64,000 bases of DNA from the NCBI RefSeq assembly GCF_051903065.1, contig NZ_CP178438.1, one strand, 5' to 3'. This document shows, piece by piece, positions 4,179-25,060 of this stretch. The notes under the pieces were generated by a model that was not told where the DNA came from, did not search any database, and saw only the letters and a list, made by a program, of their open reading frames with translations. Position 1 is the stretch's first letter, and each line of letters starts with the position of its first letter. The position numbers and the translations under genes are program-made. This DNA comes from Escherichia coli (GTDB lineage: Bacteria; Pseudomonadota; Gammaproteobacteria; Enterobacterales; Enterobacteriaceae).

Positions 4179-4179
4179 T

Positions 4180-5181: not shown

Positions 5182-5193
5182 TGTTTAATATGA

Positions 5194-5501: not shown

Positions 5502-5506
5502 GATGT

Positions 5507-6541: not shown

Positions 6542-8313
6542 CAGTAAAACTCCAGAATGGTGGATGTCAGCGGAGTGCTGATACCCGCGGTGAGTGGCTC
6601 ATTTAACAGGGCGTGCATGGTCGCCCAGGCGAGGTCGGCGTGGCTGGCTTCCTCGCTGCGGCTGGCCTCATAGGTGGCACTGCGTCCGCTGCTGGTCATG
6701 GTCTTGCGGATAGCCATAAACGAGCTGGTGATGTCGGTGGCGCTGACGTCGTATTCCAGACAGCCACGGCGGATGACGTCTTTTGCCTTGAGCACCATTG
6801 CGGTTTTCATTTCCGGCGTGTAGCGGATGTCGCGCGCGGCGGGATAGAACGAGCGCACGAGCTGGAACACGCCGACACCGAGGCCGGTGGCATCAATACC
6901 GATGTATTCGACGTTGTATTTTTCGGTGAGTTTGCGGATGGATTCAGCCTGGGTGGCAAAGTCCATGCCTTTCCACTGGTGACGCTCAAGTATTCTGAAT
7001 TTGCCACCGGCCACCACCGGCGGTGCCAGCACCACGCATCCGGCACTGTCGCCACGGTGTGACGGGTCGTAACCAATCCAGACCGGGCGGGAGCCGAACG
7101 GATTCGCGGCAAACGGCGTATAGTCTTCCCATTCTTCCAGCGTGTCGACCATGCAGCGTTGCAGCTCCTCGAACGGGAATACCGACGCCTTGTCGTCAAC
7201 AAATTCACACATGAACAGGTTTTTAAAATCGTCGGCGCTGTTTTCGCGTTTAAGCTGCTCAATGTCGAACAGCGTGCAGCCACCTTTCAGGGCGTCCTCA
7301 ATGGTGACAATCTGCCGCCACTGGCCGTCCGCACAGAGAAGCCCACCGGCAAGGGCGTTATGACTGACGTCGATTTCCACGCGTTCGGCGGCGCTGGCGC
7401 GTCCCCGGTTGAACAGTTCACCCGACCAGAACGGATAGGCGTCGTGCGCCAGCGTGGACGGGGTGGAGAAATAGGTCGAGCGCAGGTGACTCTGTGAGGC
7501 CATACCTGATGCCACCTTACGCAGTACCTGAAAATTCGGGATCCAGAAAATCTCATCGACGTACAGGTCGCCGTTATGGCTCTGCGCGGTGTTGGAGTTG
7601 GTGCCGAGAAAAATCAGTTTTGCGCCGTTATTGCCCAGGACAATCGGGTCACCGGTCAGGTCAACGTCAACCAGCCGGGCAAAGGCGATGATGTATTCGC
7701 GGAACACATACGCCTGCGTTTTACTGGCCGACAGAAAAATCTGGTTATGACCGGTTTTCAGGGCGCGCAGCAGCGCCTCGCGGGAAAAATAAAACGTCGC
7801 GCCAATCTGGCGGGATTTCAGGATATCGCGGATGCGGTGCTCAAGCCCGGCGCGATACCAGTGCAACTGATAGTCGAAAGACTGCTCAAAGAAAATCTGC
7901 TCCAGCTTTTCGATGGCCTCGTCACTGAAAAAATTCTTTTTCGGTTTGCGACGCCCGCCTTTGTTGCGGTTAGCGACGTTCGGATTAAGGTCTGCCTCGT
8001 TGCCGGTCTGACTGTAGCGGTTGACCCGCGCCAGCCGTTCAATCTGGCGTCCCAGCAGGTCAATTTCCTTGAAGTCACCGCCGGTTTTCTGCGGTTTGAT
8101 GATGAGCTGGGTCAGCCGCGCTTCCAGACTCATTTCGACACGGCTGATGGGGGCAACGCTGTCCCAGCCGTCGCGCTGTTTCCAGCTCTGCACCGTCGGG
8201 CGTTTCATCTGCAACATGGCGGCAATCTGCGGCACGGAAAACCCCTGCCAGTACAGCAGCGCCGCCTGACGACGCGGGTCGTGTAAAAGAGTGGTGTCTG
8301 TGGTGATGGTCAT
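6541..8313 (-). CDS. P: Terminase large (ATPase) subunit gpP
   Basis: ORF 6541..8343; start taken at MTITTDTTLL (ATG at 8311-8313 on minus strand) as in P2 gpP; divergent from O. Confidence 0.88.
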   Translation of the reverse strand: MTITTDTTLLHDPRRQAALLYWQGFSVPQIAAMLQMKRPTVQSWKQRDGWDSVAPISRVEMSLEARLTQLIIKPQKTGGDFKEIDLLGRQIERLARVNRYSQTGNEADLNPNVANRNKGGRRKPKKNFFSDEAIEKLEQIFFEQSFDYQLHWYRAGLEHRIRDILKSRQIGATFYFSREALLRALKTGHNQIFLSASKTQAYVFREYIIAFARLVDVDLTGDPIVLGNNGAKLIFLGTNSNTAQSHNGDLYVDEIFWIPNFQVLRKVASGMASQSHLRSTYFSTPSTLAHDAYPFWSGELFNRGRASAAERVEIDVSHNALAGGLLCADGQWRQIVTIEDALKGGCTLFDIEQLKRENSADDFKNLFMCEFVDDKASVFPFEELQRCMVDTLEEWEDYTPFAANPFGSRPVWIGYDPSHRGDSAGCVVLAPPVVAGGKFRILERHQWKGMDFATQAESIRKLTEKYNVEYIGIDATGLGVGVFQLVRSFYPAARDIRYTPEMKTAMVLKAKDVIRRGCLEYDVSATDITSSFMAIRKTMTSSGRSATYEASRSEEASHADLAWATMHALLNEPLTAGISTPLTSTILEFY

Positions 8314-8379
8314 GAATACCTCGCCGTGATGAATACACGGCAAGGCTACTGAGTCGCGCCCTGCGATTCGCTAAGGTGC

Positions 8380-8389
8380 TGTTGTGTCA
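8380..8389 (+). promoter_or_regulatory. Late-promoter-associated motif TGTTGTGTCA upstream of O (P_O region; Ogr-dependent by analogy)
   Basis: Motif about 100 bp upstream of O start; same decamer family recurs upstream of V and FI. Confidence 0.45.
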
Positions 8390-8486
8390 GTGATAAGCCA
8401 TCCGGGACTGATGGCGGAGGATGCGCATCGTCGGGAAACTGATGCCGACATGTGACTCCTCTAATCACTATTCAGGACTCCTGACA

Positions 8487-9341
8487 ATGGCAAAAAAAGT
8501 CTCAAAATTCTTTCGTATCGGCGTTGAGGGTGACACCTGTGACGGGCGTGTCATCAGTGCGCAGGATATTCAGGAAATGGCCGAAACCTTTGACCCGCGT
8601 GTCTATGGTTGCCGCATTAACCTGGAACATCTGCGCGGCATCCTGCCTGACGGCATTTTTAAACGTTATGGCGATGTGGCCGAACTGAAGGCCGAAAAGA
8701 TTGATGACGATTCGGCGCTGAAAGGCAAATGGGCGCTGTTTGCGAAAATCACCCCGACCGATGACCTTATCGCGATGAACAAGGCCGCGCAGAAGGTCTA
8801 TACCTCAATGGAAATTCAGCCGAACTTTGCCAATACCGGCAAATGTTATCTGGTGGGGCTGGCCGTCACCGATGACCCGGCAAGCCTTGGCACGGAATAC
8901 CTGGAATTCTGCCGCACGGCAAAACACAATCCCCTGAACCGCTTCAAATTAAGCCCTGAAAATCTGATTTCAGTGGCAACGCCCGTTGAGCTGGAATTTG
9001 AAGACCTGCCTGAAACCGTGTTCACCGCCCTGACCGAAAAGGTGAAGTCCATTTTTGGCCGCAAACAGGCCAGCGATGATGCCCGTCTGAATGACGTGCA
9101 TGAAGCGGTGACCGCTGTTGCTGAACATGTGCAGGAAAAACTGAGCGCCACTGAGCAGCGCCTCGCTGAGATGGAAACCGCCTTTTCCGCACTTAAGCAG
9201 GAGGTGACTGACAGGGCGGATGAAACCAGCCAGGCATTCACCCGCCTGAAAAACAGCCTCGACCACACCGAAAGTCTGACCCAGCAGCGCCGCAGCAAGG
9301 CCACCGGCGGTGGCGGTGACGCCCTGATGACGAACTGCTGA
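8487..9341 (+). CDS. O: Capsid scaffolding protein gpO
   Basis: Start at MAKKVSKFFRIG (ATG 8487) inside ORF 8421..9341; 284 aa as P2 gpO. Confidence 0.88.
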   Translation: MAKKVSKFFRIGVEGDTCDGRVISAQDIQEMAETFDPRVYGCRINLEHLRGILPDGIFKRYGDVAELKAEKIDDDSALKGKWALFAKITPTDDLIAMNKAAQKVYTSMEIQPNFANTGKCYLVGLAVTDDPASLGTEYLEFCRTAKHNPLNRFKLSPENLISVATPVELEFEDLPETVFTALTEKVKSIFGRKQASDDARLNDVHEAVTAVAEHVQEKLSATEQRLAEMETAFSALKQEVTDRADETSQAFTRLKNSLDHTESLTQQRRSKATGGGGDALMTNC

Positions 9342-9400
9342 CCGGCGTCAGTCAGTCCGGGAAAACCTTCACGATTAACCCTTAATTTTCAGGAAAAACT

Positions 9401-10474
9401 ATGCGCCAGGAAACCCGCTTTAAATTTAATGCTTACCTGTCCCGTGTTGCCGAATTGAACGGCATCGACGCCGGTGATGTGTCGAAAAAATTCACCGTTG
9501 AACCGTCGGTCACCCAGACCCTGATGAACACCATGCAGGAGTCCTCTGACTTTCTGACCCGCATCAACATTGTGCCGGTCAGCGAAATGAAAGGGGAAAA
9601 AATTGGTATTGGTGTCACCGGCTCCATCGCCAGCACCACCGACACCGCCGGTGGCACCGAGCGTCAGCCGAAGGACTTCTCGAAGCTGGCGTCAAACAAG
9701 TACGAATGCGACCAGATTAACTTCGATTTTTATATCCGCTACAAAACGCTGGACCTGTGGGCGCGTTATCAGGATTTCCAGCTCCGTGTCCGTAACGCCA
9801 TTATCAAACGCCAGTCCCTTGATTTAATCATGGCCGGTTTTAACGGCGTGAGGCGTGCCGAAACCTCTGACCGCAGCAGTAACCCGATGCTGCAGGATGT
9901 GGCGGTCGGCTGGCTGCAGAAATACCGCAATGAAGCTCCGGCGCGCGTGATGAGCAAGGTCACTGACGAGGAAGGGCACACCACCTCTGAGGTCATCCGC
10001 GTGGGTAAGGGCGGTGATTATGCCAGCCTTGATGCACTGGTGATGGATGCGACCAACAACCTGATTGAGCCGTGGTATCAGGAAGACCCTGACCTTGTGG
10101 TGATTGTGGGACGTCAGCTACTGGCGGACAAGTATTTTCCCATCGTCAACAAGGAGCAGGACAACAGCGAAATGCTGGCCGCTGACGTCATCATCAGCCA
10201 GAAACGCATCGGCAACCTGCCAGCGGTACGCGTCCCGTACTTCCCGGCTGATGCGATGCTCATCACGAAGCTGGAAAACCTGTCCATCTACTACATGGAT
10301 GACAGCCATCGCCGCGTGATTGAGGAAAACCCGAAACTCGATCGCGTGGAGAACTACGAGTCAATGAACATTGATTACGTGGTGGAGGACTACGCCGCCG
10401 GTTGTCTGGTGGAAAAAATTAAGGTCGGTGATTTCTCCACACCGGCTAAAGCGACCGCAGAGCCGGGAGCGTAA
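9401..10474 (+). CDS. N: Major capsid protein gpN
   Basis: 357 aa, P2 gpN size and position. Confidence 0.9.
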   Translation: MRQETRFKFNAYLSRVAELNGIDAGDVSKKFTVEPSVTQTLMNTMQESSDFLTRINIVPVSEMKGEKIGIGVTGSIASTTDTAGGTERQPKDFSKLASNKYECDQINFDFYIRYKTLDLWARYQDFQLRVRNAIIKRQSLDLIMAGFNGVRRAETSDRSSNPMLQDVAVGWLQKYRNEAPARVMSKVTDEEGHTTSEVIRVGKGGDYASLDALVMDATNNLIEPWYQEDPDLVVIVGRQLLADKYFPIVNKEQDNSEMLAADVIISQKRIGNLPAVRVPYFPADAMLITKLENLSIYYMDDSHRRVIEENPKLDRVENYESMNIDYVVEDYAAGCLVEKIKVGDFSTPAKATAEPGA

Positions 10475-10477
10475 CCG

Positions 10478-11221
10478 ATGACGAGTCCCGCACAGCGCCA
10501 CATGATGCGGGTCTCGGCAGCGATGACCGCGCAGCGGGAAGCCGCCCCGCTGCGACATGCAACTGTCTATGAGCAGATGCTGGTTAAGCTGGCCGCAGAC
10601 CAGCGCACACTGAAAGCGATTTATTCAAAAGAGCTGAAGGCCGCGAAAAAACGCGAACTGCTGCCGTTCTGGTTGCCGTGGGTGAACGGCGTGCTGGAGC
10701 AGGGCAAAGGTGCACAGGATGACATTCTGATGACGGTCATGCTGTGGCGTCTGGATACCGGCGATATTGGCGGTGCGCTGGAGATTGCCCGTTATGCCCT
10801 GAAGTACGGTCTGACCATGCCGGGTAAACACCGCCGTACCCCGCCGTACATGTTCACCGAGGAGGTGGCGCTCGCGGCCATGCGCGCCCACGCTGCCGGT
10901 GAGTCTGTGGATACCCGCCTGCTGACGGAGACCCTTGAACTGACCGCCACGGCTGACATGCCTGATGAAGTGCGCGCAAAGCTGCACAAAATCACCGGTC
11001 TGCTTCTGCGTGATGGTGGTGATGCCGCCGGTGCGCTGGCTCACCTGCAACGTGCGACACAGCTCGACTGTCAGGCAGGTGTCAAAAAAGAGATTGAACG
11101 ACTGGAGCGGGAGCTGAAACCGAAGCCGGAGCCGCAGCCCAAAGCGGCCACCCGCGCCCCGCGTAAGACCCGGAGCGTGACACCGGCAAAACGTGGACGC
11201 CCGAAAAAGAAAGCCAGTTAA
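10478..11221 (+). CDS. M: Terminase small (endonuclease) subunit gpM
   Basis: 247 aa, position after N, basic C-terminus. Confidence 0.88.
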   Translation: MTSPAQRHMMRVSAAMTAQREAAPLRHATVYEQMLVKLAADQRTLKAIYSKELKAAKKRELLPFWLPWVNGVLEQGKGAQDDILMTVMLWRLDTGDIGGALEIARYALKYGLTMPGKHRRTPPYMFTEEVALAAMRAHAAGESVDTRLLTETLELTATADMPDEVRAKLHKITGLLLRDGGDAAGALAHLQRATQLDCQAGVKKEIERLERELKPKPEPQPKAATRAPRKTRSVTPAKRGRPKKKAS

Positions 11222-11320
11222 CAACCGAATGCGCCCCGCGCCAGGGCGGCACGCCGGTCAGTGTGGGTGAATCACCTGACACTGTACCGGCGTCCACCGC
11301 CCGACTTTTCTGAGGTAGTC

Positions 11321-11830
11321 ATGATGACGCTGATTATTCCGCGAAAGGAGGCTCCCGTGTCCGGTGAGGGTACGGTGGTCATCCCGCAACCGGCAGGCGA
11401 CGAGCCGGTGATTAAAAACACGTTCTTTTTTCCCGATATCGACCCGAAGCGCGTCCGGGAACGTATGCGCCTTGAGCAGACCGTCGCCCCCGCCCGTCTG
11501 CGTGAGGCCATCAAGTCAGGCATGGCGGAGACGAATGCGGAGCTGTACGAGTACCGCGAACAGAAAATTGCCGCCGGTTTTACGCGTCTGGCTGACGTCC
11601 CGGCAGACGATATCGACGGTGAAAGCATCAAGGTTTTTTACTACGAGCGCGCCGTGTGTGCGATGGCGACCGCGTCGCTTTATGAGCGTTATCGCGGCGT
11701 GGATGCCAGTGCGAAAGGCGACAAGAAGGCCGACAGCATTGACAGCACCATTGATGAACTGTGGCGGGATATGCGCTGGGCGGTGGCGCGTATCCAGGAC
11801 AAGCCGCGCTGCATCGTGAGTCAAATCTGA
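11321..11830 (+). CDS. L: Head completion/stabilisation protein gpL
   Basis: Start at MMTLIIPRKEAP (ATG 11321) inside ORF 11261..11830; 169 aa. Confidence 0.85.
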   Translation: MMTLIIPRKEAPVSGEGTVVIPQPAGDEPVIKNTFFFPDIDPKRVRERMRLEQTVAPARLREAIKSGMAETNAELYEYREQKIAAGFTRLADVPADDIDGESIKVFYYERAVCAMATASLYERYRGVDASAKGDKKADSIDSTIDELWRDMRWAVARIQDKPRCIVSQI

Positions 11831-12033
11831 TGAAGACCTTTGCGCTACAGGGCGACACGCTCGACGCCATTTGTGTCCGGTATTACGGGCGCACTGAGGG
11901 CGTGGTCGAGGCCGTGCTCGCCGCAAATCCGGGACTGGCTGAACTGGGCGCGGTGCTGCCACACGGCACCGCCGTCGAACTGCCCGACGTTCAGACCGCG
12001 CCCGTGGCTGAAACTGTCAATCTGTGGGAGTAA
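11830..12033 (+). CDS. X: Tail protein gpX
   Basis: 67 aa MKTFALQGDTLDAI; ATG overlaps L stop. Confidence 0.8.
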   Translation: MKTFALQGDTLDAICVRYYGRTEGVVEAVLAANPGLAELGAVLPHGTAVELPDVQTAPVAETVNLWE

Positions 12034-12036
12034 CGC

Positions 12037-12318
12037 ATGACAGCAGAAGAAAAAAGCGTCCTGTCGCTTTTCATGATTGGGGTGCTGATTGTTGTCGGCA
12101 AGGTGCTTGCCGGTGGTGAACCCATCACCCCGCGTCTGTTTATCGGGCGCATGTTGCTCGGTGGTTTTGTCTCGATGGTTGCCGGTGTTGTTCTGGTGCA
12201 GTTTCCTGACCTGTCACTGCCTGCGGTGTGCGGCATCGGCTCCATGCTGGGTATCGCCGGTTATCAGGTGATTGAGATTGCCATTCAGCGCCGCTTTAAG
12301 GGCAGGGGGAAACCGTAA
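12037..12318 (+). CDS. Y: Holin gpY
   Basis: 93 aa with hydrophobic transmembrane segments, directly precedes endolysin. Confidence 0.85.
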   Translation: MTAEEKSVLSLFMIGVLIVVGKVLAGGEPITPRLFIGRMLLGGFVSMVAGVVLVQFPDLSLPAVCGIGSMLGIAGYQVIEIAIQRRFKGRGKP

Positions 12319-12815
12319 TGCCGGTTATTAACACGCATCAGAATATCGCCGCCTTTCTCGACATGCTGGCCGTGTCCGAAGGGACGGCGAACCATCCGCT
12401 GACGAAAAACCGGGGCTATGACGTGATAGTCACCGGACTGGACGGAAAGCCGGAAATTTTCACCGACTACAGTGACCACCCGTTCGCACATGGCCGACCG
12501 GCGAAAGTGTTTAACCGTCGCGGTGAAAAATCCACGGCATCCGGTCGCTATCAGCAGCTTTACCTGTTCTGGCCGCACTACCGCAAACAGCTTGCCCTGC
12601 CGGATTTCAGTCCGTTGTCACAGGACAGACTCGCCATTCAGTTGATCCGCGAACGCGGTGCACTGGATGACATCCGGGCGGGACGCATTGAGCGCGCCAT
12701 TTCACGCTGTCGCAATATCTGGGCGTCCCTGCCGGGTGCCGGTTACGGTCAGCGTGAGCATTCACTGGAAAAACTGGTCACCGTCTGGCGTACCGCTGGC
12801 GGCGTACCGGCTTAA
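12318..12815 (+). CDS. K: Endolysin (lysozyme) gpK
   Basis: 165 aa, P2 K-like sequence. Confidence 0.88.
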   Translation: MPVINTHQNIAAFLDMLAVSEGTANHPLTKNRGYDVIVTGLDGKPEIFTDYSDHPFAHGRPAKVFNRRGEKSTASGRYQQLYLFWPHYRKQLALPDFSPLSQDRLAIQLIRERGALDDIRAGRIERAISRCRNIWASLPGAGYGQREHSLEKLVTVWRTAGGVPA

Positions 12816-12829
12816 ACGGAGTAAACACC

Positions 12830-13255
12830 ATGAAGAAATTATCCCTTTCACTGATGCTGAACGTGTCGCTGGCGCTGATGCTGGCACTGTCCCTGATTTA
12901 CCCGCAGAGCGTGGCCGTCAGTTTTGTCGCCACCTGGGCGATTCTGGCGACGGTTATCTGTGTGGTTGCCTGTGGTGTCGGCGTGTATGCCACTGAGTAT
13001 GTACTGGAGCGCTACGGGCGGGAGCTGCCGCCGGAATCGATGGTCGTGAAGATTGTCACGTCGCTGTTTTTGCAGCCGGTGCTGTGGCGCAGACGGGCGG
13101 TGGGTCTGGTGGTGATGGTGGCGACGTTTATCTCGCTGGTCGCTGCCGGGTGGATTTTTACCGCACTGATTTATCTCGTGGCATCGCTGTTTTTCCGGCT
13201 GATACGTAAAGCCTGTCGTCAGCGTCTTGAGGGGCGGGAACTATGTCAAAGCTGA
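12830..13255 (+). CDS. lysA: Lysis accessory membrane protein LysA
   Basis: 141 aa, multiple hydrophobic helices, position after K. Confidence 0.8.
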   Translation: MKKLSLSLMLNVSLALMLALSLIYPQSVAVSFVATWAILATVICVVACGVGVYATEYVLERYGRELPPESMVVKIVTSLFLQPVLWRRRAVGLVVMVATFISLVAAGWIFTALIYLVASLFFRLIRKACRQRLEGRELCQS

Positions 13256-13668
13256 TGATTGTGCTGGTCGTGTTGTTATCGCTGGCGGTGACCGGTCTGT
13301 TTCTGGTGAAACACAAAAATGCCAGCCTGCGCGCCTCGCTGGACAGGGCGAACAACGTCGCCAGCGGTCAGCAGACGACCATCACCATGCTGAAAAACCA
13401 GCTTCATGTTGCCCTTACCAGGGCAGACAAAAACGAGCTGGCGCAGGTGGCACTGCGTCAGGAGCTGGAGAACGCCGCGAAGCGTGAAGCACAGCGCGAG
13501 AAAACCATCACGAGGTTACTCAATGAAAACGAAGATTTTCGCCGCTGGTACGGTGCTGACCTGCCTGATGCTGTGCGCCGGTTGCACCAGCGCCCGGCCT
13601 GCGCCGACGCCAGTGATTGTCCACAACGCCTGCCCGAAAGTGAGTCTTTGCCCGATGCCGGGCAGTGA
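13243..13668 (+). CDS. lysB: i-spanin LysB (Rz-like)
   Basis: 141 aa, N-terminal TM helix then coiled-coil-like region. Confidence 0.8.
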   Translation: MSKLMIVLVVLLSLAVTGLFLVKHKNASLRASLDRANNVASGQQTTITMLKNQLHVALTRADKNELAQVALRQELENAAKREAQREKTITRLLNENEDFRRWYGADLPDAVRRLHQRPACADASDCPQRLPESESLPDAGQ

Positions 13669-13813
13669 CCCAGAGAAGAACGGCGATTTAAGTGCCGATA
13701 TCCGGCAGCTTGAGAACGCGCTGGCACACTGTGCCAGCCAGATAAAAATGATTAAACACTGTCAGGACGAAAACGATGCTCAAACCCGACAGCCTGCGCA
13801 GGGCGCTGACTGA
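13523..13813 (+). CDS. lysC: o-spanin lipoprotein LysC (Rz1-like), embedded/overlapping in lysB in +1 frame
   Basis: MKTKIFAAGTVLTCLMLCAGC: signal peptide with lipobox LCAGC; overlaps lysB 3' end in a different frame. Confidence 0.75.
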   Translation: MKTKIFAAGTVLTCLMLCAGCTSARPAPTPVIVHNACPKVSLCPMPGSDPEKNGDLSADIRQLENALAHCASQIKMIKHCQDENDAQTRQPAQGAD

Positions 13814-14243
13814 TGCCGTCACGGTGCTGAAAACCAGTCCAGAGATGCTGCGGATATTCGTGGATAACGGGAGTATTGCTTCCACACTGGCGACGTCGCT
13901 GTCATTCGAAAAGCGTTACACGCTCAATGTGATTGTGACCGACTTTACCGGTGATTTTGACCTGCTCATCGTGCCGGTGCTGGCGTGGCTGCGGGAAAAT
14001 CAGCCCGACATCATGACCACCGACGAAGGCCAGAAAAAGGGCTTCACGTTTTATGCAGACATCAACAATGACAGCAGCTTTGATATCAGTATCAGCCTGA
14101 TGCTGACCGAGCGCACGCTGGTCAGTGAGGTTGACGGTGCGCTGCATGTGAAGAATATCCCGGAACCTCCGCCGCCGGAGCCGGTCACCCGCCCGGTGGA
14201 GCTTTATATCAATGGCGAACTGGTGAGCAAGTGGGATGAATGA
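13776..14243 (+). CDS. R: Tail completion protein gpR
   Basis: 155 aa, P2 gpR size and position. Confidence 0.85.
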   Translation: MLKPDSLRRALTDAVTVLKTSPEMLRIFVDNGSIASTLATSLSFEKRYTLNVIVTDFTGDFDLLIVPVLAWLRENQPDIMTTDEGQKKGFTFYADINNDSSFDISISLMLTERTLVSEVDGALHVKNIPEPPPPEPVTRPVELYINGELVSKWDE

Positions 14244-14694
14244 GTTTAAGCGTTTTGAAGACCGGCTGACCGGACTGATTGAATCGCTGTCACCGTCAGG
14301 GCGTCGGCGACTGAGCGCCGAACTGGCGAAACGTCTGCGGCAGAGTCAGCAGCAGCGAATTAAATTACAAAAAGGCCCGGATGGTACGCCGTATGTACCG
14401 AGAAAAAACCAGCCAGTGCGAAATAAGAAAGGCCGGATAAAGCGGGAAATGTTTGTGAAATTACGCACTAACCGGTTTATGAAAGCAACAGGTAGCGAGA
14501 GTGCGGCGGTGGTGGAGTTTGCCAGCGGAGTGCAACGAATTGCGCGAGTACATCAATTAGGGCTTAAGGATAAGCCGGGGCGTAATAGTGCTGTGGTGGA
14601 ATATCCTGTTCGTGAGTTATTTGGTTTTGACAAGGAATCTATACAATTGATAGAAAGGGAGTTATTAGTGATTCTATCGAAAGATGTTATATGA
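14236..14694 (+). CDS. S: Tail completion protein gpS (3' end AT-rich, possibly chimeric)
   Basis: 152 aa; N-terminus MNEFKRFEDRLTGL P2 S-like; last ~35 codons are AT-rich and join the downstream cargo gene. Confidence 0.8.
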   Translation: MNEFKRFEDRLTGLIESLSPSGRRRLSAELAKRLRQSQQQRIKLQKGPDGTPYVPRKNQPVRNKKGRIKREMFVKLRTNRFMKATGSESAAVVEFASGVQRIARVHQLGLKDKPGRNSAVVEYPVRELFGFDKESIQLIERELLVILSKDVI

Positions 14695-15446
14695 GACGGG
14701 TGTTTATGGATGAAAAGTTTACTATTTTGAGAAAAAGAGTAAAGCACTCTCAAAAGAAAGTTATGGATTGTATTATTGCTGACCATAATGCTGATATATG
14801 TGTGTTATGCGGGAGTCCTGACGATATTACTCGTGAGCACATTATTCCTCAGTGGGCCTTTGAGTCAAATGCTGAAAAATCTTTAATTAATAAAAAGAAT
14901 AATCAGTCAACTCATTACATTAAAGCCACTGTACCAGCATGCAGAGTGTGCAATTCTGATTTGCTGGGAGTGTTTGAGTATAACCTGAAGAAATTTCTTA
15001 CGGAAAAGAGGGGAGAGGAGTTAACAGATTATGAGTATGATTGCATCATATGGTGGTTGCAATACATGGGTTTTAAGTTGCAATTAATGGATTTGCGGAA
15101 CCGCTTTCTCAGGTATAAAGGTGGTGATTATATCCCGTTCCTTGCAAACTTCCCGGTTGCAATGTTTTGGGGGAATGTCGATACGACGCCGGGGGATGTC
15201 TTCAGGATTATACGAAAATCGCGACGCAATCTGATGTCGAAATGGAAGGATAAAAAACATAATTCTTTGATGGTTTTTGAAACATCAAACAAGAGTTTTC
15301 ATTTCTTTCATAAGGTTGATGAATTTATTTTTATTGAAATGCCTCTGGTTAAGAAGGCGTTTTTCTTCTTTTTTAATAAAGAATTTGACAGCCATGATTT
15401 AGCTCATGAGGAGTGTATGAAGATTATAGAGAAGTGCTACAACTAA
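14691..15446 (+). CDS. HNH-motif nuclease-like cargo protein between S and V (P2 orf30 position); candidate defence or accessory gene
   Basis: 251 aa; CVLCGSPDDITREHIIPQW ... PACRVCNSD (CxxC...H...CxxCN His-Me finger pattern); strongly AT-rich; start may instead be ATG at 14706. Confidence 0.6.
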   Translation: MRRVFMDEKFTILRKRVKHSQKKVMDCIIADHNADICVLCGSPDDITREHIIPQWAFESNAEKSLINKKNNQSTHYIKATVPACRVCNSDLLGVFEYNLKKFLTEKRGEELTDYEYDCIIWWLQYMGFKLQLMDLRNRFLRYKGGDYIPFLANFPVAMFWGNVDTTPGDVFRIIRKSRRNLMSKWKDKKHNSLMVFETSNKSFHFFHKVDEFIFIEMPLVKKAFFFFFNKEFDSHDLAHEECMKIIEKCYN

Positions 15447-15455
15447 TATTTATTA

Positions 15456-15465
15456 TGTTGTGTCA
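15456..15465 (+). promoter_or_regulatory. Late-promoter-associated motif TGTTGTGTCA upstream of V (P_V region), part of palindrome TGTCACAGCTGACA
   Basis: ~68 bp upstream of V start; same motif as upstream of O and FI. Confidence 0.45.
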
Positions 15466-15523
15466 CAGCTGACAGAATCCTCCATGATTGCTGCTGGTAT
15501 CGTCCAGCGGCATCCTTCCCGTT

Positions 15524-16159
15524 ATGAACACTCTCGCAAATATTCAGGAACTCGCGCGCGCACTGCGCAACATGATTCGTACCGGCCTTGTCGTCGAAAC
15601 CAACCTTAAAGCCGGTCGCTGCCGTGTGCAGACCGGCGGCATGTGCACCGACTGGCTTCAGTGGCTGACCCATCGCGCCGGACGTTCGTGCACATGGTGG
15701 GCACCTTCCGTGGGGGAGCAGGTGCTGATTCTGGCCGTGGGCGGTGAACTTGACACGGCGTTTGTTCTGCCGGGGATTTATTCCGGCGATAACCCTCCGC
15801 CGTCTGCGTCGGCGGATGCCCTGCATATCCGTTTCCCTGACGGGGCGGTGATTGAGTATGAACCCGAAACCAGTGCACTTACGGTAAGCGGAATTAAAAC
15901 GGCCAGCGTGACGGCTTCTGATTCTGTTACCGCCACGGTGCCGGTGGTCATGGTGAAAGCATCAACCCGCGTCACCCTGGACACACCGGAGGTGGTCTGC
16001 ACCAACAGGCTGATTACCGGCACGCTGGAAGTGCAGAAGGGCGGGACGATGCGCGGCAACATTGAACACACCGGCGGTGAACTCTCATCAAACGGTAAGG
16101 TACTTCATACCCATAAACACCCCGGCGACAGCGGCGGCACAACAGGGGGACCTCTATGA
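15524..16159 (+). CDS. V: Baseplate spike/assembly protein gpV
   Basis: Start at MNTLANIQELARALRNM (ATG 15524) inside ORF 15488..16159. Confidence 0.88.
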   Translation: MNTLANIQELARALRNMIRTGLVVETNLKAGRCRVQTGGMCTDWLQWLTHRAGRSCTWWAPSVGEQVLILAVGGELDTAFVLPGIYSGDNPPPSASADALHIRFPDGAVIEYEPETSALTVSGIKTASVTASDSVTATVPVVMVKASTRVTLDTPEVVCTNRLITGTLEVQKGGTMRGNIEHTGGELSSNGKVLHTHKHPGDSGGTTGGPL

Positions 16160-16503
16160 CTGCGCGTTATCTCGGAATGAATCGCAGTGATGGCCTGACT
16201 GTCACTGACCTTGAGCATATCAGCCAGAGTATCGGCGATATCCTGCGCACACCGGTCGGCTCGCGGGTGATGCGTCGTGATTACGGCTCGTTGCTGGCGT
16301 CAATGATTGACCAGCCGCAGACCCCGGCGCTTGAGTTGCAGATTAAGGTCGCCTGTTACATGGCGGTGCTGAAATGGGAACCCCGCGTCACCCTGTCATC
16401 CGTCACCACTGAGCGCAGTTTTGACGGGCGAATGACGGTCACGTTAACCGGCCAGCACAACGACACCGGCCAGCCACTTTCGTTAACCATTCCTGTGAGT
16501 TGA
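16156..16503 (+). CDS. W: Baseplate protein gpW
   Basis: 115 aa, position. Confidence 0.88.
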   Translation: MTARYLGMNRSDGLTVTDLEHISQSIGDILRTPVGSRVMRRDYGSLLASMIDQPQTPALELQIKVACYMAVLKWEPRVTLSSVTTERSFDGRMTVTLTGQHNDTGQPLSLTIPVS

Positions 16504-16507
16504 AACC

Positions 16508-17416
16508 ATGCCGATTATCGACCTGAACCAGCTACCCGCACCGGATGTGGTTGAGGAGCTGGACTTTGAAACCATTCTTGCCGAACGCAAGGCGACACTG
16601 ATTTCCCTTTACCCGGAAGACCAGCAGGAGGCGGTCGCCCGTACCCTGACGCTGGAATCTGAGCCTCTCGTCAAACTGCTGGAGGAAAATGCTTATCGTG
16701 AGCTTATCTGGCGTCAGCGTGTGAATGAGGCCGCACGGGCGGTGATGCTGGCCTGTGCTGCCGGTAATGACCTTGATGTGATTGGTGCCAATTACAACAC
16801 CACGCGCCTGATTATCACCCTGGAAGATGATTCGACCATCCCGCCGACACCGGCAGTGATGGAATCTGACACGGATTATCGTCTGCGTATTCAGCAGGCG
16901 TTTGAAGGTTTAAGCGTCGCCGGGTCGGTGGGGGCCTATCAGTATCATGGTCGCAGTGCCGACGGGCGTGTCGCGGATATTTCTGTAACCAGTCCGTCTC
17001 CGGCCTGCGTCACCATCTCTGTGCTGTCACGTGAAAATAACGGCGTCGCATCCGAAGACCTGCTGGCCGTGGTGCGTAACGCCCTTAATGGTGAGGACGT
17101 CAGACCGGTGGCCGACCGCGTGACCGTGCAGTCTGCCGCCATCGTTGAATACCAGATAAACGCCACGCTTTACCTTTACCCTGGTCCCGAAAGCGAACCC
17201 ATACGCGCTGCTGCCGTGAAAAAACTGGAAGCGTACATCACGGCACAGCACCGGCTGGGGCGCGACATCCGTCTGTCTGCCATTTATGCCGCTTTGCATG
17301 TGGAAGGCGTGCAGCGTGTCGAACTGACTGCACCGCTGGCCGACATCGTGCTCAACAGTACGCAGGCGTCTTTCTGTACCGAATACCGCGTCGTGACCGG
17401 AGGCTCGGATGAGTGA
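16508..17416 (+). CDS. J: Baseplate protein gpJ
   Basis: 302 aa, position. Confidence 0.88.
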   Translation: MPIIDLNQLPAPDVVEELDFETILAERKATLISLYPEDQQEAVARTLTLESEPLVKLLEENAYRELIWRQRVNEAARAVMLACAAGNDLDVIGANYNTTRLIITLEDDSTIPPTPAVMESDTDYRLRIQQAFEGLSVAGSVGAYQYHGRSADGRVADISVTSPSPACVTISVLSRENNGVASEDLLAVVRNALNGEDVRPVADRVTVQSAAIVEYQINATLYLYPGPESEPIRAAAVKKLEAYITAQHRLGRDIRLSAIYAALHVEGVQRVELTAPLADIVLNSTQASFCTEYRVVTGGSDE

Positions 17417-17939
17417 TTCGCGACTGCTGCCGACCGGCTCATCACCGCTTGAAGTTGCCGCCGCAAAAGCCTGTGCGGAAATTGAAAAAACGCCGGTCAG
17501 GATTCGTGAACTGTGGAACCCGGATACCTGTCCGGCAAATCTGCTGCCGTGGCTGGCGTGGGCGTTTTCGGTCGACAGGTGGGATGAAAAGTGGCCGGAA
17601 GCGACAAAACGCGCCGTTATCCGCGATGCCTATTTCATCCACTGTCATAAGGGCACTATCGGTGCAATCCGGCGTGTGGTGGAGCCGCTCGGCTATCTCA
17701 TCAACGTGACGGAGTGGTGGGAAAACAGTGACCCGCCCGGCACCTTCCGGCTTGATATTGGTGTACTGGAAAGTGGCATCACAGAGGCAATGTATCAGGA
17801 AATGGAACGGCTGATTGCTGATGCCAAACCTGCAAGCCGTCATCTTATTGGCCTGAACATTACCCGGGACATTCCCGGCTACCTGTTCGCCGGTGGTGTG
17901 GCTTACGACGGCGATGTAATTACGGTTTACCCCGGATAA
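17409..17939 (+). CDS. I: Baseplate protein gpI
   Basis: 176 aa, position. Confidence 0.85.
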   Translation: MSDSRLLPTGSSPLEVAAAKACAEIEKTPVRIRELWNPDTCPANLLPWLAWAFSVDRWDEKWPEATKRAVIRDAYFIHCHKGTIGAIRRVVEPLGYLINVTEWWENSDPPGTFRLDIGVLESGITEAMYQEMERLIADAKPASRHLIGLNITRDIPGYLFAGGVAYDGDVITVYPG

Positions 17940-17949
17940 GTGAGGAATA

Positions 17950-19827
17950 ATGAGCACAAAATTCAAAACCGTTATCACCACTGCCGGTGCAGCAAAGCTG
18001 GCAGCGGCAACCGCACCGGGAGGGCGGAAGGTCAACATTACCACGATGGCCGTCGGGGATGGCGGTGGTAAATTGCCTGTCCCGGATGCCGGACAGACCG
18101 GGCTTATCCACGAAGTCTGGCGACATACGCTGAACAAAATCAGCCAGGACAAACGAAACAGTAATTATATTATCGCAGAGCTGGTTATTCCGCCGGAGGT
18201 GGGCGGTTTCTGGATGCGTGAGCTTGGCCTGTACGATGATGCGGGAACGTTAATTGCCGTGGCGAACATGGCCGAAAGTTATAAGCCTGCCCTTGCCGAA
18301 GGCTCAGGGCGTTCGCAGACCTGCCGCATGGTCATCATCGTCAGCAGTGTGGCCTCAGTGGCGCTGACCATTGACACCACAACGGTGATGGCAACGCAGG
18401 ATTACGTTGATGACAAAATTGCAGAACATGAACAGTCACGACGTCACCCTGACGCCTCGCTGACCGCAAAAGGTTTTACTCAGTTAAGCAGTGCGACCAA
18501 CAGCACGTCTGAAACGCTCGCCGCAACACCAAAAGCTGTTAAGACGGTAATGGATGAAGCGAACAAAAAAGCGCCATTAAACAGCCCTGCACTGACCGGA
18601 ACGCCAACGACGCCAACTGCGCGACAGGGAACGAATAATACTCAGATCGCAAACACGGCTTTCGTTATGGCCGCGATTGCCGCCCTTGTAGACTCGTCGC
18701 CTGACGCACTGAATACGCTGAACGAGCTGGCGGCGGCGCTGGGCAATGACCCGAATTTTGCTACCTCCATGACTAATGCGCTTGCGGGTAAGCAACCGAA
18801 AGATGCCACTCTGACGGCGCTGGCGGGGCTTGCTACTGCGGCAGACAGCTTTCCGTATTTTACGGGGAATGATGTTGCCAGTTTGGCAACCCTGACAAAA
18901 GTCGGGCGGGATATTCTGGCTAAAGCGACCATTGCTGCCGTTATCGAATACCTCGGTTTGCAGGAAACGGTAAACAGGGCCAGGAACGCGGTGCAAAAGA
19001 ATGGCGATACCTTGTCCGGCGGGATTACTTTTGAAAACGACTCAATCCTTGCCTGGATTCGAAATACTGACTGGGCGAAGATTGGATTTAAAAATGATGC
19101 CGATGGTGACGCTGATTCATACATGTGGTTTGAAACGGGGGATAACGGCAATGAATATTTCAAATGGAGAAGCCGCCAGAGTACCACAACAAAAGACCTG
19201 ATGACGCTGAAATGGGATGCACTAAATATTCTTGTTAATGCCGTCATTAATGGCTGTCTTGGAGTTGGTACGACGAATGCACTAGGTGGTAGCTCTATTG
19301 TCCTTGGTGATAATGATACCGGATTTAAACAGAATGGAGACGGTATTCTTGATGTTTATGCTAACAGTCAGCGTGTATTCCGTTTTCAGAATGGAGTGGC
19401 TATTGCTTTTAAAAATATTCAGGCAGGGGATAGTAAAAAGTTCTCGCTATCCAGCTCTAACACATCCACGAAGAATATTATCTTTAATTTATGGGGTGCT
19501 TCCAACCGTCCAGTGGTTGCAGAGTTAGGCGATGAGTCCGGATGGCATTTCTATAGCCAGCGAAATACAGATAACTCGGTAATATTTGCTGTTAACGGTC
19601 AGATGCAACCCAGCAACTGGGGGAATTTTGATTCCCGCTATGTGAAAGATGTTCGCCTGGGTACGCGAGTTGTTCAATTGATGGCGCGAGGTGGTCGTTA
19701 TGAAAAAGCCGGACACACGATTACCGGATTAAGAATCATTGGTGAAGTAGATGGCGATGATGAGGCCATCTTCAGGCCGATACAAAAATACATCAATGGC
19801 ACATGGTATAACGTTGCGCAGGTGTAA
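17950..19827 (+). CDS. H: Tail fibre protein gpH
   Basis: 625 aa; MSTKFKTVITTAGAAKLAAATAPG N-terminus as recalled for P2 H; C-terminal part AT-richer. Confidence 0.88.
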   Translation: MSTKFKTVITTAGAAKLAAATAPGGRKVNITTMAVGDGGGKLPVPDAGQTGLIHEVWRHTLNKISQDKRNSNYIIAELVIPPEVGGFWMRELGLYDDAGTLIAVANMAESYKPALAEGSGRSQTCRMVIIVSSVASVALTIDTTTVMATQDYVDDKIAEHEQSRRHPDASLTAKGFTQLSSATNSTSETLAATPKAVKTVMDEANKKAPLNSPALTGTPTTPTARQGTNNTQIANTAFVMAAIAALVDSSPDALNTLNELAAALGNDPNFATSMTNALAGKQPKDATLTALAGLATAADSFPYFTGNDVASLATLTKVGRDILAKATIAAVIEYLGLQETVNRARNAVQKNGDTLSGGITFENDSILAWIRNTDWAKIGFKNDADGDADSYMWFETGDNGNEYFKWRSRQSTTTKDLMTLKWDALNILVNAVINGCLGVGTTNALGGSSIVLGDNDTGFKQNGDGILDVYANSQRVFRFQNGVAIAFKNIQAGDSKKFSLSSSNTSTKNIIFNLWGASNRPVVAELGDESGWHFYSQRNTDNSVIFAVNGQMQPSNWGNFDSRYVKDVRLGTRVVQLMARGGRYEKAGHTITGLRIIGEVDGDDEAIFRPIQKYINGTWYNVAQV

Positions 19828-19830
19828 GTA

Positions 19831-20358
19831 ATGCAGCATTTAAAGAACATTAAGTCAGGTAATCCAAAAACAAAAGAGCAATATCAGCTAACAAAGAATT
19901 TTGATGTTATCTGGTTATGGTCCGAAGACGGAAAAAACTGGTATGAGGAAGTAAGTAATTTTCAGCCAGACACAATAAAGATTGTTTACGATGAAAATAA
20001 TATTATTGTCGCCATCACCAGAGATGCTTCAACGCTTAATCCTGAAGGTTTTAGCGTCGTTGAGGTTCCTGATATTACTGCCAACCGGCGTGCTGATGAC
20101 TCAGGTAAATGGATGTTTAAGGATGGTGCCGTGATTAAGCGGATTTATACGGCAGACGAACAGCAGAAACTGGCGGAATTACATAAGGCAGCTTTGCTTT
20201 CCGAAGCTGAATCCGTGATTTTGCCGCTGGAGCGCGCGGTCAGGCTGAATATGGCAACAGATGAGGAGCGTAGTCGACTGGAGGCATGGGAACGCTATAG
20301 TGTTCTGGTCAGTCGTGTGGATCCTGCAAATCCTGAATGGCCGGAAATGCCGCAATAA
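19831..20358 (+). CDS. G: Tail fibre assembly chaperone gpG
   Basis: 175 aa [21 protein letters not shown]2 G-like. Confidence 0.88.
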
Positions 20359-20457
20359 GTTGTATGAGCTCTGGTGTGAGCTTACATATCTATGGCACAG
20401 AGTAAAGCCTAATCTGACAGTCCGTTCTGTGCCAGTAGCGGACGTTTGAATAAATTA

Positions 20458-20486
20458 TTGACTAACTAAAGTTTTTGGCATTAAAT
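20458..20486 (+). promoter_or_regulatory. Putative sigma70 promoter for the HEPN-motif cargo gene
   Basis: TTGACT, 17-bp spacer, TTAAAT; ~35 bp upstream of GGAG RBS and ATG 20527. Confidence 0.35.
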
Positions 20487-20526
20487 TTTCAATTAAAATG
20501 TTCGCATTGATTTATTGGAGTAAATA

Positions 20527-21480
20527 ATGGATATACATGCAAAAAGAGTTGGCAGTCCACTTTATAAAATTATTATGTACTTAAATAAGTATGAAGAAGA
20601 TACACTGGAAGACATAAAACTTCAGTTTCTTTTAAAAAATTTAAAAACTCATTTCAAGAAACTGTTTTATATGATTACTTACATTAATAAAATTCAAAAA
20701 GATGCTGAGTTCATCAGAAAACATGATGCAACATCAATTGTCAGCATTAGTGCTATTGAGTATTGCTATTATAAAATCAGCACGATATGGGATATTGCAT
20801 ATCAGATAGCTGATAAATTAATTTTCCCAACTAAAAAAAATGGCAATAAATATGATTACCTTGAAAATCATTTCCAGCAATATGCACAGGAATTTCCAGA
20901 TTTGAATTTAAAATGGTATAAGGACTTTAATAAAATAAGAAATAAGATAGTTCATGGAGGGATAACAGTAAATCCTTATTATGTCAACGATGATAATATT
21001 AAAACAAAGATTTGTTTCCAAGCATATGACTCTGATCTAAACGATCTGATTCAACCTCATATGATGTATTCAAATAGATTCAATAACAATATTAATTTTG
21101 CTGATTACTATTTTACCTTTTATACTCATCTTCTCTATTCATATCTTTTTGATTTTTTTGATTTTGTACTTCTTGAGCTAAACAAAGATAAATCACATGA
21201 TTTAGACAATCTTATTCTTGATGATATACCGCACAAATTGTTTGGTGCTCATCATGAAACATGGTTGTTATCTGATGTTGATCAATTTATGAAAATTACA
21301 AGAGAAATGATTTCCCTACAAATAGCTGATGGTTGTTTAAATAAAATTGAGAAAATACCCTCAAGTGATATTGAACATTTTTTTAACAACTTTCCATTTT
21401 GTCTTATGACAAAGGTTAGCTCCGGAGATTGGGTATTGGTTGAGGATAAAGCGGCTGAAACAAAGTCATCGGACACTTAA
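20527..21480 (+). CDS. HEPN-motif (Rx4H) protein, Abi-like candidate, cargo in the G-FI (Z/fun) hotspot
   Basis: 317 aa; very AT-rich, Lys/Asn/Tyr/Phe-rich; motif RNKIVHGG (R-x4-H); own promoter-like elements. Confidence 0.55.
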   Translation: MDIHAKRVGSPLYKIIMYLNKYEEDTLEDIKLQFLLKNLKTHFKKLFYMITYINKIQKDAEFIRKHDATSIVSISAIEYCYYKISTIWDIAYQIADKLIFPTKKNGNKYDYLENHFQQYAQEFPDLNLKWYKDFNKIRNKIVHGGITVNPYYVNDDNIKTKICFQAYDSDLNDLIQPHMMYSNRFNNNINFADYYFTFYTHLLYSYLFDFFDFVLLELNKDKSHDLDNLILDDIPHKLFGAHHETWLLSDVDQFMKITREMISLQIADGCLNKIEKIPSSDIEHFFNNFPFCLMTKVSSGDWVLVEDKAAETKSSDT

Positions 21481-21774
21481 ATTTTTTTTGTGCCAAAGTC
21501 TACTCCTCGCTCGTCACAGGCTTTGGCATTCGTTTCAACAACCAAGTGATAGCATATATTGTGACCTGCACCCCGTTGATTCATACATCCTCGATGTAAG
21601 CAATCCCTTGAGAACGTCCACTCCTCGCTCTTAGCAGATCACACGGTTCTTCAAACGATCCGCTTCGTACCAGAAACGAACTTTTATCTCAAATTTGAAC
21701 CTTTTAGTGGATGACGACGTTTGTGTCTTCAAGTAGTCTTAAAAGCATGCGGATAGTGCATAGGAAAAGCAGAA

Positions 21775-22611
21775 GTGATCGATGACCCACTACCAGAAAA
21801 CTGGCAAGACCTCCAGACAGGGGTCCAACGTATATTCCGTAATGTTGGCTTGTTTGCAGAAGTCGAGGTCGATTTAGAAACCCCGCGTGGCTCGGTGAAT
21901 GTGGATGTTCTTGCTACAGATGTTAGGAGCGTGGACAAAATCAGATACATTGTGGAATGCAAAAACTGGGGTAGTTCTATACCACAGACGGTGGTCCATT
22001 CGTTCACCACGGTAATGCATGAAACCGGGGCTAATATTGGATTTATTATTTCAAAGCACGGGCTTCAGCAGGGTGCTAAACAGTACACTCAAAACACCAA
22101 TATTATTGGGATGACATACCTTGAGTTCCAAAAAAGGTATTTTGAGGCTTGGTGGAATAGATACTTTTGTCCACGTATCGGTGATGCTGCAGACGAACCG
22201 CTTCAGTACGTCGAACCAATCAACTCTAAACGAGATCGCGAATACGCCAAGCTAAGCCTTCAAGCACAAGAGAAGTTCGATCAGTTAAGGCAAGAGAAAG
22301 GTGTATCAGTAGTGGTTCTCTCTATGCTCAATTACAAGTTTATGTCGAAAGCATTAAACACTGGTAACTTGCTGGAAGTCCCAAATAATCTGGATGATTT
22401 TAAGAACAGAGTTCTCTCCCGAATATGTCCTCACATTGAATGGCATTGTGATACGTACAGAGAGCTGCTAGAGCTCATCTTGCAATACTTATCAGTCACA
22501 AAAGCAGAGTTTGATGCAATATTTGGTCGGGCCATCTTTGAACCGCCAAGTAGTATCACGGGGGTTACGGCTGAAGGTCCCCCTTTAGACGATGGTATTT
22601 ATCATCATTAG
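21775..22611 (+). CDS. PD-(D/E)xK restriction-endonuclease-like (Mrr_cat-like) protein, cargo in the G-FI hotspot
   Basis: 278 aa, GTG start; N-terminal VNVDVLATD ... YIVECKNW (D ... E-x-K nuclease signature). Confidence 0.55.
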   Translation: MIDDPLPENWQDLQTGVQRIFRNVGLFAEVEVDLETPRGSVNVDVLATDVRSVDKIRYIVECKNWGSSIPQTVVHSFTTVMHETGANIGFIISKHGLQQGAKQYTQNTNIIGMTYLEFQKRYFEAWWNRYFCPRIGDAADEPLQYVEPINSKRDREYAKLSLQAQEKFDQLRQEKGVSVVVLSMLNYKFMSKALNTGNLLEVPNNLDDFKNRVLSRICPHIEWHCDTYRELLELILQYLSVTKAEFDAIFGRAIFEPPSSITGVTAEGPPLDDGIYHH

Positions 22612-22732
22612 TTTCATACATAAACCATGCTCCCGCATGTCCGCATTTCGCTCAAAGCAGACTGTCAGATTTGATAGCGTTTGGGCTATGTAAACTGTCA
22701 GTCGGAAAATGAGTGTGTGCAAATCAGGACAG

Positions 22733-22760
22733 GCGGGCGAATTGCCCGCATTTTCTTTAT
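22733..22760 (+). terminator. Rho-independent terminator after the G-FI cargo genes
   Basis: GCGGGC-GAATT-GCCCGC followed by TTTTCTTTAT. Confidence 0.6.
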
Positions 22761-22762
22761 CT

Positions 22763-22772
22763 GTTGTTTCAT
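22763..22772 (+). promoter_or_regulatory. Late-promoter-associated motif TGTTGTTTCA upstream of FI (P_F region)
   Basis: ~92 bp upstream of FI start; third copy of the TGTTGT(G/T)TCA motif. Confidence 0.45.
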
Positions 22773-22854
22773 CCACTGACCAGCCAGGTCAAATGGCGTC
22801 TCATGCACTGCCCAACAGAAAATAGTTGCACCCATTAACCACGGAGTTAAACGG

Positions 22855-24045: not shown

Positions 24046-24057
24046 GGAGCCTGACCG

Positions 24058-24576
24058 ATGGCAATGCCGCGCAAACTCAAGTTAATGAACGTCTTTCTGA
24101 ACGGCTACAGCTATCAGGGCGTTGCAAAGTCCGTCACGCTGCCAAAACTGACCCGTAAGCTCGAAAACTATCGCGGTGCGGGGATGAACGGCAGCGCACC
24201 GGTAGACCTCGGCCTTGATGATGATGCGCTGTCAATGGAGTGGTCGCTCGGGGGCTTCCCGGATTCGGTTATCTGGGAGCTTTACGCCGCAACCGGCGTG
24301 GATGCCGTGCCGATTCGTTTTGCAGGCTCTTACCAGCGCGACGATACCGGCGAAACGGTGGCCGTCGAAGTGGTCATGCGTGGACGTCAGAAAGAAATCG
24401 ACACCGGCGAGGGCAAACAGGGAGAAGACACCGAGTCGAAAATCTCCGTGGTCTGCACCTATTTCCGGCTGACGATGGACGGTAAGGAGCTGGTCGAAAT
24501 CGACACCATCAACATGATTGAGAAGGTGAACGGCGTCGACCGGCTGGAGCAACACCGCCGCAATATCGGCCTGTGA
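24058..24576 (+). CDS. FII: Tail tube protein FII
   Basis: 172 aa, follows sheath. Confidence 0.9.
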   Translation: MAMPRKLKLMNVFLNGYSYQGVAKSVTLPKLTRKLENYRGAGMNGSAPVDLGLDDDALSMEWSLGGFPDSVIWELYAATGVDAVPIRFAGSYQRDDTGETVAVEVVMRGRQKEIDTGEGKQGEDTESKISVVCTYFRLTMDGKELVEIDTINMIEKVNGVDRLEQHRRNIGL

Positions 24577-24632
24577 TTTTCATCCGGTCAGCCTGGCTGA
24601 CCGGTTAACCCCGATTCAGAAGAGAGAAAACC

Positions 24633-24908: not shown

Positions 24909-25060
24909 CGTTTCCGAAAAATCTCTCGGTCGATGACCTGATGGCAGATGTGGCTGTGATATTTCACTGGCCGCCATCAGAACTGTATCCCATGAGCCTG
25001 ACCGAACTCATCACATGGCGCGAAAAGGCGCTCCGGCGAAGCGGAAACACGAATGAGTAA
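24633..25060 (+). CDS. E': Tail assembly chaperone E+E' made by programmed -1 frameshift at TTTTTTG (24881-24887)
   Basis: -1 frame stays open from the slippery site to TAA at 25058-25060, giving ~142 aa; overlaps the T start. Confidence 0.7.

Follow-up and report, generated by a model that had tools for sequence, protein, structure and literature searches.

What does a ten-base word signify when it stands before three late operons of a P2-like prophage, and how does it relate to the foreign DNA found beside it? The window analyzed here, i.e., the whole 64-kb stretch of Escherichia coli DNA, contains three matches to TGTTGTKTCA, all of them on the plus strand. An earlier note, made from the sequence alone, had taken these words for halves of the boxes of the late activator Ogr, with cargo genes inserted at operon ends. 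The pattern search placed them as follows.

8380-8389, plus strand: motif copy 1, TGTTGTGTCA, 107 bp before the O ATG (8487)
15456-15465, plus strand: motif copy 2, TGTTGTGTCA, 68 bp before the V ATG (15524)
22762-22771, plus strand: motif copy 3, TGTTGTTTCA, 93 bp before the FI ATG (22855)

The recurrence upstream of O, V, and FI is confirmed, three copies being found where 0.33 ± 0.55 are expected by chance, a count reached in none of 100 dinucleotide shuffles. Two particulars had to be corrected: the third copy had been given as 22763-22772, one base off, and the distances to the first genes as 70-100 bp, whereas the measured range is 68-107 bp. We consider it very probable, from alignment with P2 and conservation among relatives, that the three copies are the promoter-distal halves of Ogr binding sites at the late promoters of this prophage. 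Ogr late-promoter boxes are already described biology and in that sense the feature is an ordinary one; the neighboring cargo raises a further question, taken up below.

Probable late promoters of the prophage

The window holds a P2-like prophage about 95-97% identical to P2 over the backbone (blastn against RefSeq NC_001895, our P2 reference, whose features include the activator binding sites and the mapped starts of pO/pP, pV, and pF). The blastn matches to P2, the activator gene, and the three annotated P2 sites are as follows.

1-2261: gene A, P2 match
5319-14460: cos through Q, P, and O to the first part of S, P2 match
15524-20446: V through G, P2 match
22640-29545: P_F through D, ogr, and the attachment region, P2 match
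29239-29457, plus strand: ogr, gene of the zinc-finger late activator (Pfam Ogr_Delta, E = 2e-21; 72 of 72 residues identical to P2 Ogr)
P2 3057-3087: feature "activator binding site; pO, pP promoters"; P starts at 3016 on the minus strand, O at 3127
P2 10239-10266: pV activator site, with its start at 10308, the first base of the V CDS
P2 17555-17583: pF activator site, with its start at 17626-17628

No homology to P2 was found by blastn at 2262-5289, 14461-15523, and 20447-22639. These three gaps are AT-rich (GC 0.26-0.46 vs about 0.55-0.60 in the backbone) and correspond to the slots, each at the 3' end of a late operon, in which P2 carries its non-essential genes old/tin, orf30, and fun(Z). 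Cargo just upstream of two of the motif copies, as the earlier note had it, is indeed present, AT-rich non-P2 DNA lying directly 5' of copies 2 and 3. On its right end (29545-32058) the prophage adjoins E. coli pflB (29776-32058, minus strand), and the ogr-pflB junction also occurs in many complete E. coli genomes. Rfam found no RNA family in 1-31000; in the window, no tRNA gene was found and no P4-like element was seen.

A consensus of TGT-N12-ACA has been published for P_P, P_O, P_V, and P_F, with the activator site centered ~55 bp upstream of the transcription start (PMC3931495, which cites Christie & Calendar 1985 and Julien & Calendar 1995 for the consensus). The predicted sites in the window are listed below, with starts transferred from P2.

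8377-8407, both directions: shared Ogr activator site of P_P (leftward, P-Q) and P_O (rightward, O...S), equivalent to P2 3057-3087
8447, plus strand: predicted P_O start, from P2 3127 by homology, box center 55.5 bp upstream
8336, minus strand: predicted P_P start, from P2 3016 by homology, the same box center 55.5 bp upstream
15456-15476, plus strand: P_V activator box, in the canonical register TGT (15459-61), N12, AGA (15474-76)
15488-15524, plus strand: P_V core promoter, -35-like TTGCTG (15488-93), 17-bp spacer, -10-like CATCCT (15511-16)
22733-22757, plus strand: predicted Rho-independent terminator, its T-run abutting the P_F box, kept in most related loci
22762-22782, plus strand: P_F activator box, TGT (22765-67), N12, CCA (22780-82), aligned with P2 pF 17555-17583
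22817-22822, plus strand: P_F -10 element GAAAAT, conserved with P2
22829-22831, plus strand: predicted P_F start, from P2 17626-17628, box center 55.5-57.5 bp upstream

All three copies align with annotated P2 activator sites, the very comparison on which the earlier note had staked its reading of the motif as Ogr-box halves, and that reading stands. Of the ten bases, the first 3 are flank, the next 3 the TGT of the canonical left half, and the last 4 the beginning of the spacer. Written out as dyads, the window sites are TGT-N12-CCA at 8383, TGT-N12-AGA at 15459, and TGT-N12-CCA at 22765, each with 5/6 matches to the consensus; not one of the three is perfect, and the P2 sites themselves (CCA, CAA, and CCA) equally reach 5/6. 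The distances from box center to the starts transferred from P2 are 55.5 (O), 55.5 (P), 56.5 (V), and 55.5-57.5 bp (F), for P_V and P_F across core sequences that differ from those of P2. The boxes precede the first genes of the late operons (P-Q, O...S, V...G, and FI...D), in a gene order collinear with P2. The exact 10-mer occurs only once in P2, at P_O, and is missing from the P_V and P_F of that phage; the threefold identity is therefore a property of the promoter alleles of this prophage.

Copy 1 is the most straightforward of the three. Between P and O, the intergenic region has 1 difference from P2 in 179 bases (99% identity), so copy 1 is the P2 site itself, with its core TGT at 8383-85, N12, and CCA at 8398-8400, centered on 8391.5 and standing 70 bp before the P start codon. 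It is also the top match in the window to a PWM built without the window's own alleles (27.8 bits vs a shuffle maximum of 19.0). Please note that the footprint of this site among relatives is uninformative, all 80 loci retrieved by the O protein being near-identical. Since the site is common to P_P and P_O, three boxes would serve four late promoters: the assignment of the motif to O, V, and FI holds, but the divergent P_P, also served by copy 1, had been missed.

Late promoters of the P2/P4 Ogr-Delta type require Ogr as well as the alpha subunit of RNA polymerase (they are rpoA109-sensitive), their box is protected by the activator, and P4 Delta can substitute for Ogr. In the proposed mechanism, when the lytic program starts, Ogr, a 72-aa Cys4 zinc-finger protein, would be made from ogr's own promoter, would occupy the box at about -55, and would recruit RNA polymerase through the C-terminal domain of the alpha subunit, switching on four otherwise weak promoters, i.e., P_P and P_O (box 8377-8407), P_V (15456-15476), and P_F (22762-22782). 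For this prophage we infer Ogr binding, alpha-subunit contact, and the starts from the established biology of P2 and P4.

The P_V and P_F boxes across relatives

The conservation analysis covered about 230 related loci in all. For V, 39 distinct upstream sequences were obtained from 72 usable loci; they fall, as we read them, into roughly six unrelated classes (no cargo, the P2 orf30 type, the window/R18C type, and three others). In all classes but one, (T/A)GTTGT stands at -68, the exception having ATTGT shifted by 1 bp; in a Klebsiella prophage with another neighboring gene, TGTTGT is again at -68 relative to the V ATG, and in a Yersinia prophage with a 69%-identical homologue of the cargo protein it is at -67. 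Taken over eight unrelated upstream contexts, GTTGT is found at -67 to -63 (±1) from the V ATG, while the P_V promoters outside the box are ~31% identical pairwise, which is the random level. The window and P2 make the point in miniature: TGTTGT begins 68 bp before the V ATG in both (10240 vs ATG 10308 in P2), only ATGTTGT is in common upstream of V, and the promoters are otherwise unalignable. For FI, with 80 loci and 72 distinct sequences, 79 of the loci have their TGT closest to -90 no more than 3 bp away from that position, and most of the 80 have GTTGT at about -92 from the FI ATG; in 15 of 17 non-redundant P_F box classes CCA follows 12 nt after TGT, mostly as CCAAC. At both P_V and P_F, the box is conserved among relatives beyond its flanking sequence. 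From 25 non-redundant boxes we obtained the consensus tGTTGTgCCA-N8-CCAAC, of about 22 bits.

The PWM was built without the window's own alleles (leave-own-out) and scanned over the 64 kb and over shuffles. It returns the P_F box as the second-best match in the window, 22.7 bits against a shuffle maximum of 19.0, the window TGT at 22765 and CCA at 22780 aligning with TGT at 17561 and CCA at 17576 in P2. The P_V box scores 13.3 bits, within shuffle noise, and P2's own P_V falls outside the top eight P2 matches, the matrix being dominated by P_F-type sites with CCAAC as the right half; P_V is thus not callable from sequence alone. Its right half is ambiguous as well, with ACA found at N10, N11, or N12 in different alleles (in the window, ACA at 15472-74 is the N10 alternative to the canonical AGA). 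Given this weak score and the ambiguous right half, it is position and the conserved GTTGT that carry the assignment of P_V. In the window, no further site rises above PWM noise, near the cargo genes or elsewhere, the best near the cargo scoring 9.5 bits at 21483; the loose form GTTGT-N12-MMA is not enriched either (13 found vs 9.5 expected) and is therefore useless as a stand-alone detector.

The palindrome TGTCACAGCTGACA which the earlier note had described around the P_V box is real as an inverted repeat, of 5-bp arms TGTCA (15461-65) and TGACA (15470-74) around a 4-bp spacer, but it is imperfect, only the inner CAGCTG (15466-71) being a perfect palindrome, and it is not the canonical TGT-N12-ACA dyad. 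Downstream of the box, P_V is predicted to start on, or close to, the first base of the V ATG (15524), so that the mRNA would be leaderless, as the P2 annotation also has it. At 15489-15512, a GC-rich hairpin (TGCTGCTGG/CCAGCGGCA) overlaps the -35 element and the spacer of P_V (fold z-score -3.05). It is kept in the cargo-free relatives (TGCCGCCGG/CCGGCGGCA, with one compensatory pair) and in the Yersinia prophage, and is absent from P2-type alleles. This hairpin may be a weak terminator or an insulator against read-through from the O operon.

At P_F, the promoter patch 22757-22836 is 63% identical to P2, set in a backbone 91-96% identical (91% and 96% in the two flanks), and the 80 related loci carry the window-type allele more often than any other. 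The P_F promoter is a diverged allele, a localized swap of the promoter itself. The terminator at 22733-22757 would insulate P_F from the cargo genes upstream. In one related contig (L106) the P_F box upstream of FI is replaced by a run of ~23 T, which is probably an error of assembly or sequencing where the terminator has its T-run.

Cargo slots and the S|V block

The DNA filling the slots on either side of V...G is resolved as follows.

14461-15486, plus strand: S|V mosaic block, made of the diverged 3' two-thirds of S, a cargo ORF, and the P_V box, in the P2 slot of orf30
14706-15446 (from 14691 if the upstream ATG is used), plus strand: S|V cargo ORF, 246 or 251 aa, phrog_10503, function unknown
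20447-22639, plus strand: G|FI cargo, in the slot of P2 Z/fun
20527-21480, plus strand: G|FI ORF, 317 aa, no family match, GC about 0.27
21775-22611, plus strand: G|FI ORF, 278 aa, with an N-terminal Mrr_cat restriction-endonuclease domain

The first 40 aa of the S protein are identical to P2 S, after which it diverges, to 59% overall, and the GC content of the S|V block is 0.39-0.41, vs 0.55-0.60 in the backbone. In cargo-free relatives nothing separates the TAG stop of S from the box (cgTTAGTTGTGCC), and homology between them and the window resumes at 15487, next to the -35-like TTGCTG (15488). The P_V box of the window differs from that of the cargo-free relatives and lies inside the swapped block, from which it follows that it came in with the cargo. 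Because the cargo was exchanged together with part of the essential tail gene S and with the P_V box, the pattern favors homologous exchange, the partner being a distant P2-like phage, over a clean insertion. The claim that cargo sits at operon ends with the boxes left undisrupted is correct in its first half, the slots matching those of P2, but not at P_V, where the box is inside the swapped block; at P_F, the cassette does end ~120 bp upstream of the box, with the terminator (22733-22749, its T-run following) left in between, but the promoter is itself a diverged allele.

The S|V cargo ORF is co-oriented with S, starting 11 bp past the S stop or, with the upstream ATG, overlapping it, and no sigma-70 promoter or terminator was predicted around it; from both observations it probably belongs to the Ogr-dependent O operon as its last gene. 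Across 16 homologues, C37, C40, E49-H50, N70, C84, C87, and N88 of the protein are invariant, a C-x2-C...E-H...N...C-x2-C-N signature that looks HNH-like. The best Pfam match is HNH_5, sub-threshold (E = 0.01), and structure searches with the AlphaFold model (pLDDT 75.5) gave no specific structural neighbor. P2-like prophages of Yersinia and Klebsiella have homologues in this very slot, but an Erwinia homologue adjoins TraG and an integrase. The cargo could be a homing or defence nuclease. Predictions for the Z/fun slot gave sigma-70-like promoters at 20458-20528 and, at 22733, a terminator. The old/tin slot holds, at 2511-5181, a 555-aa AAA_15/AAA_21 ATPase (best PADLOC match NsnB, 2e-51; AriA, GajA, and PtuA models also match) and a 333-aa partner with no family match and only a weak PD-(D/E)XK hint (E = 0.06), a candidate two-gene defence system.

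Since each class of S|V cassette has its own box allele, the box would travel with the cassette while its register is held by selection. Our proposal, which we put forward as tentative, is that the P_V box, and partly the P_F box, are no fixed landmarks of the backbone beside which cargo inserts but belong to exchangeable cassettes, each S|V cassette bringing its own, otherwise unrelated promoter-distal region, of which only GTTGT at -67 to -63 survives.

One may then ask whether the motif is a recombination boundary for cassette swaps, att- or crossover-like, and not, or not only, an activator site. Homology junctions do lie beside or inside the boxes: the window and its cargo-free relatives join again at 15487, a little past the P_V box, loci of the L086/L090 type regain P2 homology in the middle of the P_F box, and recent hotspot papers call the recombination process not yet understood. 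Yet copy 1, which is none other than the activator site of P2, has no adjoining cargo, the S|V block has its left junction within S, far from any copy of the motif, as would fit homologous exchange between flanking genes, the distance from motif to start codon is fixed, as for a promoter element, and no recombinase is associated with the motif. We hold this explanation to be very unlikely. That the word recurs by chance, as a T/G-rich repeat, or by shared ancestry, without function, could be argued from its being a 10-mer with one degenerate position and from the abundance of the loose consensus by chance; against this, three copies are reached in no shuffle, all copies are on the sense strand upstream of the first genes of operons, and the register of GTTGT is fixed within flanks whose pairwise identity is at the random level. 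The shuffles and the fixed register at the V and FI loci effectively refute this reading, and we give it almost no credence.

The repeat at P_V deserves the same care, because TGTGT-N6-TGACA (15459-15474) might be the site of another dimeric regulator, e.g., a CRP-like one, beside or instead of Ogr. The CRP core consensus is TGTGA-N6-TCACA, of which the repeat matches 8 of 10 positions; (T/C)GACA occurs at the same spacing in the window-type, cargo-free, and Yersinia alleles, and the canonical N12 right half is poor here (AGA). However, the P_V alleles of P2, of the loci L018, L053, and L080, and of Klebsiella have no such repeat and still keep GTTGT in register, the center of the repeat, at about -57.5, is not a typical CRP class I position, and expression of the V operon in P2 is established to be Ogr-dependent. 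A second regulator at this repeat is very unlikely too, and Ogr binding is the reading we retain for all three copies.

Comparison with known phages and implications

With P2 the prophage shares gene order, operon starts, Ogr (100%), the P_P/P_O site, the register of TGT to the V and FI start codons, and box centers about 55-57 bp from the predicted starts; it differs in a P_V unrelated apart from ATGTTGT and in the P_F patch. The only phage matching the whole of 15000-16000 is Peduovirus R18C (MN016939 / NC_049461), at 98.5% and including the cargo ORF and the P_V allele; its records annotate the cargo only as "hypothetical protein" and carry no promoter features. The P4 promoters P_sid and P_LL, activated by Delta or Ogr, share the activator family and the TGT-N12-ACA logic. 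Upstream of sid, P4 (L246 in our set) has two perfect TGT-N12-ACA dyads, at 9493-9510 and 9531-9548, the second preceded by TGTTGT, and the best PWM matches in P4 cluster there; unlike the P2-type sites, these perfect dyads have ACA at their end, and the P2-type PWM, with CCAAC for a right half, gives them low scores.

Nilsson, in 2004, is said to have described old/tin, TO/orf30, and Z/fun as the variable regions of P2-like phages. The cargo of the window sits in exactly these three slots and is AT-rich, as in the known hotspots. As defence hotspots, these regions are well described in Rousset 2022 (PMC9122126), the iLund4u 2024 preprint, and bioRxiv 10.64898/2026.02.27.708500. A term search of these three sources found Ogr unmentioned, and the passages it brought up discuss neither the late promoters nor a link between cassette boundary and activator box. 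Recent papers describe the turnover of defence cassettes in P2-like phages as unresolved.

As annotation, the analysis places four late promoters, their shared and individual boxes, and their likely starts in this prophage, with three cargo islands at operon ends that do not interrupt Ogr-driven morphogenesis. What goes beyond the textbook is that the P_V box and, less markedly, the P_F promoter seem to be swapped together with hotspot cargo while a five-base core stays in fixed register; this co-inheritance of box and cargo matters for the turnover of defence cassettes in P2-like phages and for the question of which bases Ogr needs. If the cassette proposal is true, the natural diversity of cassettes is a ready-made mutational scan, and it suggests that the left half-site and its exact spacing are the essential Ogr determinant at P_V. 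It would likewise suggest that cassettes turn over through homologous exchange for which the coding sequences of S and V serve as anchors, an exchange that the S|V cargo with its HNH signature might drive as a homing nuclease.
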